This document shows positions 23,591 through 62,975 of a DNA stretch of 64,000 bases, piece by piece (position 1 is the first letter of the stretch; each line of letters opens with the position of its first letter). Source of the stretch: Octopus vulgaris (lineage: Eukaryota); contig OX597824.1 in the NCBI GenBank assembly GCA_951406725.2, positions 32,798,001-32,862,000 on the forward strand, read 5' to 3'. The translations under genes were made by a program, and so were the position numbers. The notes under the pieces are model-generated. The model searched no databases. It had not been told where the DNA came from and worked only from the letters and a program-made list of their open reading frames with translations.

Positions 23591-23895
23591 CGCTCGTCGC
23601 AGAGCATTTTTGTTGCTCGTCATATAATATATCTGACAGCGATTCAATATTATTTGAAAACTTGTTGATTTCAGTTGATATCGTCCATGGATAAAAAAAA
23701 AAACTTACATATTGTTAAATGTACTGTGTCAATATGATAGCATGTTGTCAACTTAATGTGACAGTCCCATAAAAGGGAAGAATTCTACTGTTATTTAGCC
23801 CCAGGAAACACCGTTGCCTATTAGACTTGACACATTTCCTGTGCCCTTATGTTTGCAAAGTGGAGATAAGCACCTCCACCCAGGAAAGCCAGTAG

Positions 23896-23936
23896 CCAGA
23901 GACTAGTTTCAGAGTCATTGCTCATCATCAGTCTGG
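23896..23936 (-). ncRNA. minimal type-I hammerhead ribozyme motif
   Basis: CCAGA-CUGAUGA-UGAG caauga CUCU-GAAA-CUAG-UC-UCUGG; 5-bp stem I, palindromic ACUAGU stem III, GUC triplet; U-U mismatch at the base of stem II. Confidence 0.7.
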
Positions 23937-25110
23937 AGTAGCAATGACCATGAAACTAGTCTCTGGAAAACCTAGAAATACTTGATTTCACAGAAAAAGA
24001 ACAAAAATAAAACTAATGCGGATACTACAAATCCAATCTATTAGTGGCACGGTGAAGATTTGTAAGACATTCCAGAAATTCTCCATGTGAGATTCTTATG
24101 TGTATAGAAGCACACACTTGGGTGTATGCATCAACAGTTCAACCAACACACCAGCTCAGCCACATATTTACAAACACTGGGAACTCTGTTAACTCAAAAA
24201 GTTGTGTTGCTTTGTTATAGCAACTAGCTTGGATTCTCTCAAGAACTTAAATTAAACTTTTAAAAAATCATAAATACATATATACATATACGCGACGAGC
24301 TTCCATACAAATTCACTCACAAGGGCATTTGTTGGCCCAAGGCTATATTAGAAGACACTTTTTAAATGTGCCGCGCAGTGGAACTGAACCCGAAACCGTG
24401 TGATTGCAAACAGAGTTTCTTAACCACACAGCCACGATTTTTATTACAAATCTAAAAAAATTAAGACTGAATAAATAAAACTTTTTTAGGTGCATTACTT
24501 GTGTTCAAGACTCAGCTTTATATAATTGCTAATGGAATAAACATATAATGGACATACAATAGATATATAACAGACATATAATGGAAATATAAAAATGAAA
24601 ACCGAAACACCATTATTATAAGTGATGTAACCATTTTTATTAAACTTGAGTGGTGCGAGTCATGATTTTAGAAATATTTTTACGAAGGAAAAATTCATTA
24701 TTGTACTTTGGATCTGGTTTTGGGAGCACTCAAAGAAAACGTAACAAGAATTAGTTTACACTGAAGAACGCGATATTCTTTACCAATTTTTTTGTCAGTT
24801 GTTAAGGAAATTTAACTATTCTTTGAGATTTTAACTATTCTTTGAGATAAAGTCTATGTGATGTTCTGAGAGGTTTATGGCAATATATTGTCTAGCTATA
24901 TCTTGGTGGAAGCTGTGAACATTTTTATTTAAATAAATGGCCACAAACTCATTGGTAAAGAATAAGAAATTGTATGGCATTGAAGCCTTTAATAAGAGTT
25001 TCAGCAATATTAGTGAAGTGAAATAGCGAAACAAGGATGCGAAACCATTTTATGAATTCGACTCGCTGGAGCTCACCATGTCCTAGTTACTATTGATTTG
25101 TACAGTTATT

Positions 25111-47584: not shown

Positions 47585-47790
47585 TCTCTATATACTAATA
47601 ACCGTATTCCTAACTTTCTTCATAAAATATGTATAACGGTATTCCCTAGATACAGAGTTTTCTCAACTAACTATATATTAATAACACTATTTCTAAATTT
47701 CTTCGTCAAATGTGTATAAAGTTATATGCCAAATACGGAGTTTTACCTACTATCTATATATCAATAGAGATAATACATTTCTAAATATCT
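47585..47790. repeat. degenerate ~84-bp tandem repeat
   Basis: recurrent CTATATAT.AATA....TTTCTAAATTTCTTCGT units; another unit near 47988. Confidence 0.5.
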
Positions 47791-49791
47791 CAGAGAGATT
47801 TATGCAGTCGTGGTACGATAAAGTAGTTGTATAGTAGCTGGGTGGAGGTGCTTATCTCCCCCTTACAAACATAAGGACACAGGAAATGTGTCAAGGCCGA
47901 CAGGAAGCGTTGCTGCTTCCTAGAGCTAAATAGCAGTAGTATGATTCCCTTCATGGGACTGACACATTAAGTTGACAGTATACAACTACTATATATCAAT
48001 AGCCGTGTTTCTAAATTCCTTCGTAAAATATGTGTTATGGTGCGTTTTGATACAAGTGTTACAACTGTATAATGTCAAGTACTTCTTAAATTATAAACGG
48101 AATTTGGTGCGTTGCGGTGGTGAACAATGCTCGTAAGGCACAACAGTGAGAATTGAATCAAGAGAGGCGAAGAAAATGCGGATAAAGAAAGACTGGGGAA
48201 AACTGGTCGACAGAATAACACTGATCCTGCGATCATGTGCTTTTTAACATACGCTGTCCGGTTTGGAAATACAGTTAACTGTTTACACACTCATTTTTCT
48301 GCATAATTAATGTGTAATCTTCTGTGCACGGATTACCACAATATTATATAAACGTGAATGCTTCGATGCATCGTCGCTTTTTTAAAGTTGGTGAAAAACT
48401 TCAAATATTAAAAAAAAAAATTATGAAGAAACACGAAATAGTTGTTCAGCCAAACAATTTGGAATTGGTGAATTTATCATCTGTTTACTCTTTTACTCTT
48501 TTACTTGTTTCAGTCATTTGACAGTAACAATGCTGGAGCACCGCCTTTAGTCGAACGAATCGACCCCAGGACTTATTCTTTGTAAGCCTAGTACTTATTC
48601 TATCGGTTGTCAAGCGATGTTGGGGGAACAAACACAGACACACAAGCATACACACACATACACATGCATGTATATATACATATATACGACGGGCTTCTTT
48701 CAGTTTCCGTCTACCAAATCCACTCACAAGGCTTTGGTCGGCCCGAGGCTATAGTAGAAGACACTTGCCCAAGGTGACACGCAGTGGGACTGAACCCGCA
48801 ACCATGTGGTTGGTAAGCAAGCTACTTACCACACAGCCACTCCTACGCCTATATAAGTGTAATCAAAAGAAAAAAAATTATGCATTGCATCGAGAACTCG
48901 GAGAGTATTTAAAGCGAAAATTTGTGGTTTTTCTGAGTTTGATAGCAAAACTGAAAAAGCGTCAGATTCGTGAGATCGCTACTGTGGCGTTGATGATGGG
49001 CATTCAAACTTTAAAACTGATGCAAAGTTGATTGTTCATTCTCGTTTCAAAGCAATCATAATTGGGTTACACATTTCATGAATATACGTCGTAAAATCAC
49101 GAATAGCAACTAGATCGACACTGAAACATTAGATGTGACGAAGCTCAACTGAACAATCTATTCAGGAAGACTTCCAACCTGAATTCTATGGATAACATAC
49201 AATTTTCATTTAATATTTTGTATCATTTAGCAAAGTAGGGCTTCTATTATTTTTCTATTAGTTTTCTCTCCAACCCTTCCCATACTTCTCTCCTCTTCAC
49301 CGTTCCCTCTTTCTCATTCTTCCTCCTTGACTCTCTCGTCGCTGACACGTGACGAAAGGGAATCTATCTTTCTGTCCATTTCCTTTAGGAAAGAAATGGA
49401 CTCGTCCTCCTTGCGTTCATAATAATTCTTCTATTGTCTTGGCTTAACAACCCCCACCGTTTGTTTTTACTGTCTTGTTATTACTGTCCTGTTCCTGTTA
49501 CCACTTTCACCCTCCGCAAAAAATCCCAAATTTTATTTAATTTGCTTTGCGAGAAGGACTGTTTCGACGAAGTTGCGTATTGTCCTTACCTTCGAAACGC
49601 GGAGTAGATGAAACAGGGACAACTGATGAAGGGGAATGTTCTTTATGTTACATGTCTCGTTTCTCTGTTTGTTTTTTCGTTGTTCGAAAAAAAGTTCGAT
49701 TTCTATGTTTTTGTTTTTATGCTTTCGTTTCTCATAGTGTTCAACGTTTTTTGATGTCCTGTATCCATATATGTATATATATATATATATA

Positions 49792-59811: not shown

Positions 59812-60369
59812 AGAAATATTAAATTTCTAAATCTCTCATAGAGATATGTACGGTGGTGGGGCGATAGAATGGTTGTATACTGTCAATCTAACGTGAACGT
59901 GACAGTAGGGGTTACACCACCGCTGTTTAGCCCTAGGAAGCATCGACGCCTCCTGATGGCTTTGACACATTTTTCCTGTGTCCTTATATACATTTACGAA
60001 GGGGAGACAAACACCCCCAGCAGCCAGGCCTGCATCTAGAGACACGCATGTTTCAGGATCATTGTCCTTCATCGGTCTAGAGTAGCAGACGCCCGTCAGC
60101 TGTTGATATCTGCCTCGACTCGCAAATGTATATATCTAATTTCAGTGAAGTTTATTCACTGATTACCAAAATCAGAAATATTAAATTTCTAAATCTCTCT
60201 AGATGCAGGCCTGGCTGCTGGGGGTGTTTGTCTCCCCTTCGTAAATGTATATAAGGACACAGGAAAAATGTGTCAAAGCCATCAGGAGGCGTCGATGCTT
60301 CCTAGGGCTAAACAGCGGTGGTGTAACCCCCTACTGTCACGTTCACGTTAGATTGACAGTATACAACCA

Positions 60370-60372
<3 letters not shown>
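59812..60372 (-). mobile_element. retrozyme/Penelope-like element: 362-bp unit with 26-bp redundancy plus an inverted partial copy
   Basis: direct repeat 59812-59837 = 60174-60199; inverted repeat 59867-60042 / 60196-60372; flanked by (GA)n and (TA)n. Confidence 0.75.
60035..60081 (-). ncRNA. type-I hammerhead ribozyme motif (U4C variant)
   Basis: UCUAGA-CCGAUGA-AGGA caauga UCCU-GAAA-CAUGCGUG-UC-UCUAGA. Confidence 0.7.
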
Positions 60373-60430: not shown

Positions 60431-60607
<177 letters not shown>

Positions 60608-60729
60608 CAATAAGAAACTGGAGGGGATCAATAGGTGGTATTCATCAACTTTTAGACATTATATTATGTCAATTTATTTATTTACAAAAAAGGACAATTA
60701 TAACAATATACATACATGTATAACATATT

Positions 60730-60780
<51 letters not shown>

Positions 60781-60964
60781 AAATATAAATATATCAGTAA
60801 TTATTAAAATATATTACATATAGCAATAGAAATTGGAATCCCAATTTCTATTGCTATATGTTATATATTTTAATACTTACTGCTATATTTATATATAAAT
60901 TGACATAATATAATGTCTAAAAGTTGATGAATATCACCTATTGATCCCCTCCATTTTCTTATTG
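60608..60964. repeat. AT-rich foldback
   Basis: CAATAAGAAA...GTCAATTTAT / ATAAATTGAC...TTTCTTATTG with inner arms ATATAGCAATAGAAATTGG / CCAATTTCTATTGCTATAT. Confidence 0.75.
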
Positions 60965-61163
60965 GTCTATGAATTAATGATAAAATAACTCTTTACCCTC
61001 ACCCATTTATTACACTCGGTAATGTAATTACCATGCAATGAAAAAACACTTGTGTATTAATAATTGGGTATTCTAACAGCAGTATATTGGATAGATATTA
61101 TCCCTTAGTTGGTTGGATTCACAACATCTGACTTTCTTGGAATTATATATATATATATATATA

Positions 61164-61400: not shown

Positions 61401-61512
61401 AAAGAAATCTAAAAATAAACTTAGCAATATTTGACCTTTTGCCTTCCAAAGCATTCTTATAACTTTTTCCGAGATGTCCAAGTTTGTTTCCAAATTTTTT
61501 AGTTAGTCTTTG

Positions 61513-61577
<65 letters not shown>

Positions 61578-62800
61578 AGATGTCAGAATGATATAGACGC
61601 CTCTGATGAGAACTCAGTAACGTTCGAAAATCGATTAAGGGTGTTTGTCGGTTTTTTAGTCTACGGAGAAATGGCTAAAAATTTGCCCTATTTATAATTA
61701 TATAAGATGGACAAAATTAGAGAACGTATAGTGTAAAATTCAAAAAAGTAAAATCTGCAACACTCCGATCAATGTAAACTAAGTTGACCTAACAGTACAA
61801 AGATTTATATTGAACCGTATGAAATTAACAATCATGGAAAGCCGACGTAAAGTTGATGTAAGTCTCAGAAAGCGAGCGGTCAGATTGAAAAAAGAAGGAA
61901 TGGCAATTTCTGCTAGCCAGAGACATTAACAGATCAAAGAGTATTGTTTCATGAATACTCAAGCTTTATCAGGAAGCAAGCTCGTTTGTGTCATTAGAAA
62001 AACGAAAGAGACCGTGTTTCGCAAGAGCCTGTGATTCAGCGGCAGTTATTAAAACTGGAGCAATCTTTCACTTTTAAGATGATTCACATATTGCCTACCA
62101 CGAGAGCCAACCAAATTGAACTTGCTTTCGTCACTGAAGAACACATGCGACCAGTTGTCGCTTGTTCAAAGTATGTGCTCATTGGCAAAGACTAACTTCG
62201 CTTTCCAGTTTTTCACACTGATGAGAGGTTTAGTGGCAGGAGAATGAGCATAAAGTCTGACTTCCTTCAAATGACAAGCCACAGTCTTCCGAGAGATATT
62301 CATTCCGTAATCACGATTTACTTGGCGAGAAATTCCTGCTGCAGTATCTTGCGAAACACTTGTCTTCCATGGTCTCTTTCGTTTTTCTAATGACACAAAC
62401 GAGCTTGTTTCCTCATAAAGCTTGAGTATTCATGAAACAATACTCTTTGATCTGTTAATATCTCTGGCTAGCAGAAATTGCCATTCCTTCTTTTTACAAA
62501 CTGATCGCTCGCTTTCTGAGACTTACATCAACTTTACGTCGGCTTTCCATGTTTGTTAATTCCCTATTGTTCAATATAAATCTTTGCACTGTTAGGTCAA
62601 CTTAGTTTACATTGATCGGAGTGTTGCCAGATTTTACTTTTTTGAATTTTACACCATACGTTCTCTAATTTTGTCCATCTTGTATAATTATAAACAGGGC
62701 AAATTTTTAGCCATTTCTCTGTAGACTAAAAACCGACAAACAACCTTAATCGAAACTTATTGGATTCTCTATCAGAGAATCTGTATCATTCTGATAGTCT

Positions 62801-62862
<62 letters not shown>

Positions 62863-62975
62863 CAAAGACTAACTAAAACATTGGAAACAAACTTGGACAT
62901 CTCGGAAAAAAGTTATAAAAATGCTTTGGACAGGCAAAGGGTTAAATATTACTAAGTTTATTTTCAGGTTTCTTT
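61401..62975. repeat. ~610-bp inverted duplication around a Tc1 transposase fragment
   Basis: 61401-62016 is inverted relative to 62368-62975; the spacer encodes, on the minus strand, KPLIS...L.FA..H...W..V.FSDESKFNL. Confidence 0.85.
61595..61646 (+). ncRNA. canonical-core minimal type-I hammerhead ribozyme
   Basis: AGACGCCU-CUGAUGA-GAAC ucaguaac GUUC-GAAA-AUCGAU-UA-AGGGUGUUU; palindromic AAUCGAUU stem III; UUA triplet. Confidence 0.75.

Follow-up and report, generated by a model that had tools for sequence, protein, structure and literature searches.

The 362-nt hammerhead unit that is reiterated and inverted near the end of the 64,000-nucleotide stretch of Octopus vulgaris DNA analysed here (the window) belongs to a dispersed, non-coding retrozyme family with hundreds to thousands of copies in the genome. 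The preferred reading, to which a probability of roughly 0.68 is given, is that the unit would be transcribed from a motif of the snRNA type, self-cleaved, circularised and inserted by a Penelope-type reverse transcriptase (RT)/endonuclease. Taken together, the sequence data suggest snRNA-type transcription of the retrozyme, a circular template and a LINE that targets start sites. The element is of a known kind, with new testable features around it. Transcription, enzyme and template of animal retrozymes are an open question (PMC7229834; 10.64898/2026.07.22.740005), and the family offers testable coordinates: a promoter motif, a start, a cut site and two RT start sites.

In the numbering used for the unit, position p corresponds to window position 60200-p on the minus strand, unit position 1 being 60199. 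The copy in the window has the following layout:

59812..60199, minus strand: long arm, unit 1-362 plus 1-26 (1.07 units), from sequence comparison
60196..60372, plus strand: short arm in inverted orientation, unit 158/162-333, forming a head-to-head pair with the long arm, from sequence comparison
59812..59864, minus strand: putative Penelope-type tail, lying between both 3' ends of the family (unit 336 and 391), from copy ends and PMC11167929

The terminal redundancy and the 362-nt period of the original prediction are both present, the direct repeat (59812-59837 = 60174-60199) being exact over 26 bp and impossible to extend. It lies within the unit and is family sequence, as had been supposed, which rules out its reading as a target site duplication (TSD). 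The redundancy is, by comparison of the copies, a partial tandem of accidental length set by the truncation point; it is not a constant feature of the family, whose copies have a fixed 3' end but are truncated to a variable extent at the 5' end. The near-perfect inverted copy was likewise found as described, identical to unit 158-333 at 176 of 177 positions with one homopolymer indel. The junction between the arms is ambiguous across unit 158-162, unit 160 being the first base after the GUC. Since the long arm spans 1.07 units, its template was circular or tandem, in agreement with the proposal of more than one lap. The 3' end of the long arm is family end B (~unit 29) and abuts a (TC)n/(AC)n/(AT)n tract, while that of the short arm is family end A (~unit 336) and abuts (TA)n. 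The copy carries one hammerhead and its tail is 3 nt short. The claim of a young insertion is supported, the insertion being of the retrozyme/Penelope type.

A search of the genome (2.8 Gb, 227 contigs) with the unit gave 2316 first-look candidates, 40 of them scored, and three unit words of 25-30 nt had 110, 246 and 389 exact matches. Loci were taken from the exact-word searches in contig order, so that the samples favour young copies and the first contigs. The 229 de-duplicated insertions comprised 133 head-to-head ones with the 3' ends outward, 95 in a single orientation and one complex, none being tail-to-tail. Two fixed 3' ends, 55 nt apart (unit 336 and 391), were apparent: of 361 3' ends, 167 lay near unit 336 and 128 near unit 29 in the following lap, the other 66 falling outside both groups. 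The two ends were mixed in 87 of the 89 classifiable head-to-head pairs (the other two being one like pair of each kind, and a further 44 pairs having an unclassified end; P ~1e-23), and the window copy conforms, with ends at 26 and 333. Insertion targets are AT-rich, and the commonest length of TSD-like repeats is 12 bp (17 of 101 non-microsatellite flanks), none being seen in 49 of the 101. The unit is too short to code for an RT and is non-autonomous, its TSD peak of 12 bp exceeds 4 bp, and its copies end at the two internal sites without poly(A). Arms within one insertion have a median identity of 96.4% (n=109) and copies at different loci one of 93.1%; tandem units inside one locus are only modestly similar (median 95.4%, n=24). 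Loci of 2-3 units with two or more hammerheads exist (L007, L018, L062, L095), and 5' truncation, partial tandem and inverted 5' copy all occur in the family.

One 3' end of each kind would be found in 87 of 89 pairs because each DNA end would prime at its own site. The Penelope protein would make a staggered double cut, and copying would be primed by one DNA end at unit 336 and by its partner at unit 391. Joining of the truncated cDNAs by their 5' ends would give the head-to-head insertion. The asymmetry constrains the mechanism of Penelope insertion and explains why the tail is usually at one end. The genome contains intact elements with RT and GIY-YIG, hammerheads, (TA)n-joined ends and a linker zinc motif; these elements are Neptune-like, a label that follows PMC8557442. 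Among 19 GIY-YIG loci, drawn from few families of Penelope-like elements (PLEs), no significant similarity of the unit to an autonomous partner was found. In young intact Neptune-like elements (L437-L444) an RT/GIY-YIG frame of 771-781 aa follows another long frame, and a hammerhead of the U3-A8 kind lies 70-80 nt short of the 3' end.

The candidate promoter and start are located as follows:

60158..60163, minus strand: ATCAGT, PSE-like motif, unit 37-42, from a matrix of U1/U2/U5 upstream regions
60092..60107, minus strand: site at which the LINE enters sister copies, unit 93-108 (TSD there), empty in the window copy, from sister-copy comparison

The hexamer scores 18.3 bits in the window unit, where it is the best match (null ~0.001). 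It is found 56-61 nt (~58) upstream in 24 of 30 U2, 20 of 20 U1 and 13 of 15 U5 loci; in three of the U2 loci that lack it, the LINE occupies its place. In the window unit the motif is 56 nt upstream of the LINE site, and in three other hammerhead families (L251, L210, L264) the hexamer is at -59/-60 of that site, with 8.6, 11.0 and 4.6 bits. A variant motif (7.8 bits) precedes the LINE targets of L258/L262; at those of L257/L267, L211 and L263 the motif is absent, with scores below zero. As the LINE sits 56-60 nt below the motif and at the +1 of U1 and U2, unit 93 (60107) is read from it as the putative transcription start. With the LINE site as start, an element ~60 bp upstream is present, and the vertebrate proximal element is at about -60 (PMC4494074).

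The full-length LINE has a zinc-knuckle ORF1, whose zf-CCHC score is just below the curated cut-off, and an ORF2 of 1134-1148 aa with endonuclease (APE), RT and zinc (zf-RVT) domains; a short form of 1.6 kb retains ORF1 alone. We take it to be of the Tx1/L1 clade. Among the 120 matches listed for the resident LINE protein, Argonauta hians was the only species-named one and no named Tx1 reference appeared. The 3' end of the LINE is found within the unit with a TSD of its own (13-17 bp) and with unit sequence upstream of it. A hammerhead lies 28-37 nt past the LINE end in 17 of 31 loci, for a background of 0.26%. The 30 loci found by protein consisted of nine hammerheads recognised by a strict matcher, ten more by eye, three U2, three tandem LINEs and five others. 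The three U2 genes were entered at +1, one of them (L252) with a 17-bp TSD and the ATCAGT motif upstream, and one U1 gene (L486) was also entered at +1. The pooled tally of 125 LINE ends (49 hammerhead, 3 U2, 1 U1, 16 tandem, 8 in one unknown repeat, 48 other) is biased, as it includes loci reached via the retrozyme. The LINE is inserted at the +1 of U1 and U2, at unit 93, and at the corresponding position in several further hammerhead families. CpG enrichment at 25 unique LINE sites was not significant (P = 0.09), and Rfam gave no identification of the non-hammerhead LINE targets.

Several other LINE associations were observed. Head-to-head LINE-plus-retrozyme composites (L066, L156, L176) suggest that the LINE also travels as cargo. 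One LINE subfamily is found repeatedly in one repeat (L255, L257, L260, L266-L268), with arrays of 5.28-kb period, and this repeat has no nearby hammerhead, no PSE-like motif and no Rfam match. In L256, L456, L465, L489, L491 and L492 the LINE lies ~30 nt below TATA-like boxes of other multicopy repeats, as judged by eye for L256 and L491.

The LINE may seek transcription starts and use the host promoter. A three-tier system can be drawn from this, which is held tentatively and at slightly worse than even odds: snRNA-promoter retrozymes, circles of which would be copied by a Penelope dimer with one start site per strand, and a LINE that the transcription machinery, not sequence, would steer to Pol II +1 positions (U1, U2, retrozymes, TATA-Inr repeats), where it would take over the promoter. 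If this were true, an APE LINE would have a mode of targeting that is new, and the start sites of retrozymes would have left a footprint in the genome. A competing account, possible though in our judgement doubtful, is that the LINE inserts loosely, is transcribed only where it has landed below a promoter, and has offspring that are guided back to the same sites when RNA flanking the 3' end pairs with the target. LINE subfamilies tied to particular targets, tandem arrays and the ordinary look of many unique sites would fit it, and the composites L066 and L156 seem to have moved together, which swells the counts. Against it, near-identical LINE 3' ends are found at the U2 +1 and in a hammerhead family (L227, L228), and the targets have little sequence in common beyond an A at +1. 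Moreover, the TSDs agree with the local target variant, including that of L132, a copy 98-100% identical to the window's, which indicates independent LINE insertions, although some composites (L066, L156) have also moved as a whole.

The type-I hammerhead proposed at 60035-60081 has its parts as described:

60035..60081, minus strand: type-I hammerhead, predicted from fold and covariation
60081-60076/60040-60035, minus strand: stem I, 6 bp, predicted fold
60075-60069, minus strand: core CCGAUGA, a U4C variant, predicted fold
60068-60055, minus strand: stem II, 4 bp, predicted fold
60054-60051, minus strand: GAAA, predicted fold
60050-60043, minus strand: stem III, near-palindromic, then GUC, predicted fold
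between 60041 and 60040 (unit 159/160), minus strand: predicted cut, from the fold
59985..60136, minus strand: predicted long rod extending stem I, from the fold and one both-sides change

The Rfam search gave no hammerhead match; the fold is nevertheless supported because the pairing is conserved across families. In 16 hammerheads from the window family and divergent sister families, 152 of 160 scored base pairs are kept (shuffle mean 121, maximum 133), a score that is not a probability since the sequences are related. The pairs were counted by anchors; the MAFFT alignment put the 3' halves out of register. Covariation is seen in stems I and II and in the 3-8 pair. In 11 of the 16 hammerheads stem III is perfectly palindromic, which is the design of dimer-type hammerheads (PMC4209133). 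The whole unit folds with z = -9.15. Core position 4 is C in at least 109 of 162 copies of the family, a change that is reported to lower activity in vitro but was tolerated in a viroid (PMC3088659). Self-cleavage of the unit is a prediction of the model fold. The rod is predicted to pair unit ~64-92, upstream of the putative start, with ~188-215, downstream of the cut; its distal pairing rests on the fold of the unit, one both-sides change (UA 17, CG 13 among 32) and one further fold.

Other hammerhead repeats and insertions were noted in the window and the genome. Older relatives of the unit, 70-78% identical, are at 47766-47994, head-to-head, and at 23783-23943, where the minus strand holds a hammerhead with the canonical CUGAUGA. 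A second fold-back (61488-62887) has long inverted arms flanking a piece of a Tc1-type transposase (PF01498); one arm carries a canonical hammerhead-like motif at ~61593-61645 (plus strand) and the opposite arm a decayed one. The short inverted pair 60604-60681 and 60891-60968, between (TA)n tracts, is possibly another Penelope-type insertion. At least five further hammerhead repeat families have a similar layout (L259:1049-1411 on the minus strand, L251, L210, L264, L209, L218), several with U3-A8 or U3-G8 cores; L259 has a 362-nt period and the LINE at the start of its second unit.

In the preferred reading the RNA would begin 56-60 nt downstream of the motif, at unit 93, so that the promoter would be outside the primary transcript of a monomer, and therefore only loci of at least two units would yield a two-hammerhead RNA. 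By cleavage and ligation this RNA would give a circle, and copying of the circle would pass the cut site and the start site, the promoter being restored. A linear primary transcript could not transmit its own promoter, which is upstream of the start while RT begins at 336 or 391. The simplest reading is a circle derived from a transcript with two hammerheads, which fits the cycle outlined in PMC7229834. Against the preferred reading stand the C at core position 4 of most copies, the modest similarity of tandem units within a locus, the lack of a match to an autonomous partner among the 19 loci, the LINE targets that have no motif, and cleavage in vitro of only one of nine Xenopus retrozyme dimers (10.64898/2026.07.22.740005). 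The 362-to-1 unit joint also occurs in DNA copies, and the four presumed RNA runs are contigs, uninformative on start, strand and circle.

The 5' ends of the copies were compared with the predicted cut in three sets. In set A (100 copies with exact unit 162-186, from 110 matches) four ended at 158-162, the window copy among them (P ~0.30). In set B (92 copies anchored at unit 304-333) seven of 20 copies at risk ended at 162-171 and 13 passed 160 (P ~0.01, post hoc). In set C (the first 100 of 389 matches, anchored at unit 182-208) four of 81 at risk ended at 158-162, two of them sharing one duplicated junction; 15 of 100 ended at 172-182, and five of 85 at 160-171 versus six of 80 at 148-159 (P = 0.76). 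An excess near the cut is thus hinted at by set B alone and not by sets A and C (P 0.30, 0.13, 0.76). Around 95% of the copies that reach the predicted cut continue through it, and therefore cleaved linear monomers are not the main template. At unit 93 there was no excess of 5' ends either, with two ends at 88-99 among 55 at risk once LINE junctions are set aside; apparent 5' ends at 88-100 are mostly LINE insertions. The lack of an excess at 93 or 160 fits a template without ends.

A template of long linear uncleaved RNA, from tandem loci or host read-through, with the same element and enzyme and with hammerhead and circles irrelevant to mobility, is an unlikely alternative. In an anole PLE uncleaved RNA is the main substrate and insertion in vitro is unaffected by hammerhead mutants (PMC11167929); hence, long linear read-through RNA equally explains the absence of barriers, including the ~95% passage at the cut, and the lower activity of the U4C core and the existence of loci of 2-3 units are also in its favour. 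However, a linear RNA that began at unit 93 would shed its first promoter with every round and should produce an excess of 5' ends at 93, which was not observed. The covariation of the hammerhead across families and the rod, in which the region before the start is paired with the region past the cut, speak against it as well, as do the circles obtained from mussel, coral and axolotl retrozymes (PMC7229834).

The original prediction had gone further, placing the 5' end of the short arm at the ribozyme cut, by run-off from cleaved RNA, so that this end would be recorded in the DNA. The junction range 158-162 does cover 160, two copies (L068, L088) start exactly there and the 162-171 ends of the small set B point the same way. 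Nevertheless, no pile-up was found in sets A and C, where the map of endpoints around the GUC is at chance level, and the larger set C did not repeat the cluster at 162-171 (4/85), which makes run-off quite improbable and leaves this claim unsupported. A 32-nt GC-rich insert lies between the arms at L068:1941-1973, just before the copy that starts at the cut site. SINE-like mobilisation of the unit by the adjoining LINE, suggested by the physical association of LINE 3' ends with the unit, is hardly credible and largely refuted by the architecture, the LINE being inside the unit with its own TSD and unit sequence upstream, and the unit copies being head-to-head, with two internal ends and no poly(A).

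That retrozymes are passengers of Penelope elements is already published (10.64898/2026.07.22.740005). For octopod retrozymes, a counted asymmetry of the two ends and a LINE at the +1 of snRNA-type promoters, no report was found in the open-access literature, on which the supplementary species lists of PMC7229834 and 10.64898/2026.07.22.740005 and the target figure of PMC4494074 may bear. The family resembles the metazoan non-LTR retrozymes described by Cervera and de la Pena 2020 (PMC7229834) and Li et al. 2026 (10.64898/2026.07.22.740005) in its type-I hammerhead with short, mostly palindromic stem III, in its tandem and monomer copies, in TSDs >4 bp and in the proposal of Penelope elements as mobiliser; the mussel units have 350-390 nt (PMC7229834), for 362 here, a length within the 150-450-nt range of the class. 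Unlike the retrozymes of those accounts, it is mostly dispersed, truncated and head-to-head, has the U4C core in most copies and lacks homology to a Penelope pLTR in the loci sampled.

With PLEs of the Neptune/Poseidon type (Craig et al. 2021, PMC8557442; Frangieh et al. 2024, PMC11167929) it shares 5' truncation, partial tandems, an inverted 5'-truncated copy and a tail that is frequently found at one end (PMC8557442), as well as a tail between two internal RT starts, AT-rich cuts and a hammerhead upstream of the starts (PMC11167929). It differs from the PLEs described there by having no ORF and a tail of 55 nt in place of 30-40. The start sites of its two strands are near-obligately different, whereas the in vitro results given in PMC11167929 have no strand difference. 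Its motif is of the snRNA type, whereas the intact PLEs of this genome have, as judged by eye, TATA/CCAAT/CRE-like motifs. Newt satellite 2 is a hammerhead repeat with a promoter of the snRNA type (Coats et al. 1994, cited in PMC2220036), but it is an amphibian tandem satellite and the octopus family a dispersed mollusc repeat whose promoter is a candidate. If true, a LINE on the +1 of unrelated small-RNA promoters would extend the known choice of targets and be of interest for targeted insertion tools.

Start-site tethering at Pol III genes is known from yeast Ty3 and Dictyostelium TRE5, and the insertion point of Keno is inside U2, ~37 nt in. Target-specific LINEs of the Tx1 clade include Keno (U2), Tx1 (Tx1D) and Tx1-Mar, and the target figure of the same source gives U2, U5 and satellite targets (PMC4494074). 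The octopus LINE is like them in its APE-RT-zinc ORF2, zinc-knuckle ORF1, tandem arrays and choice of multicopy small-RNA genes or other elements as targets. However, the Tx1-clade families covered there use one target sequence each, whereas the octopus LINE is found at the +1 of U1 and U2 and at the equivalent site of unrelated sequences.
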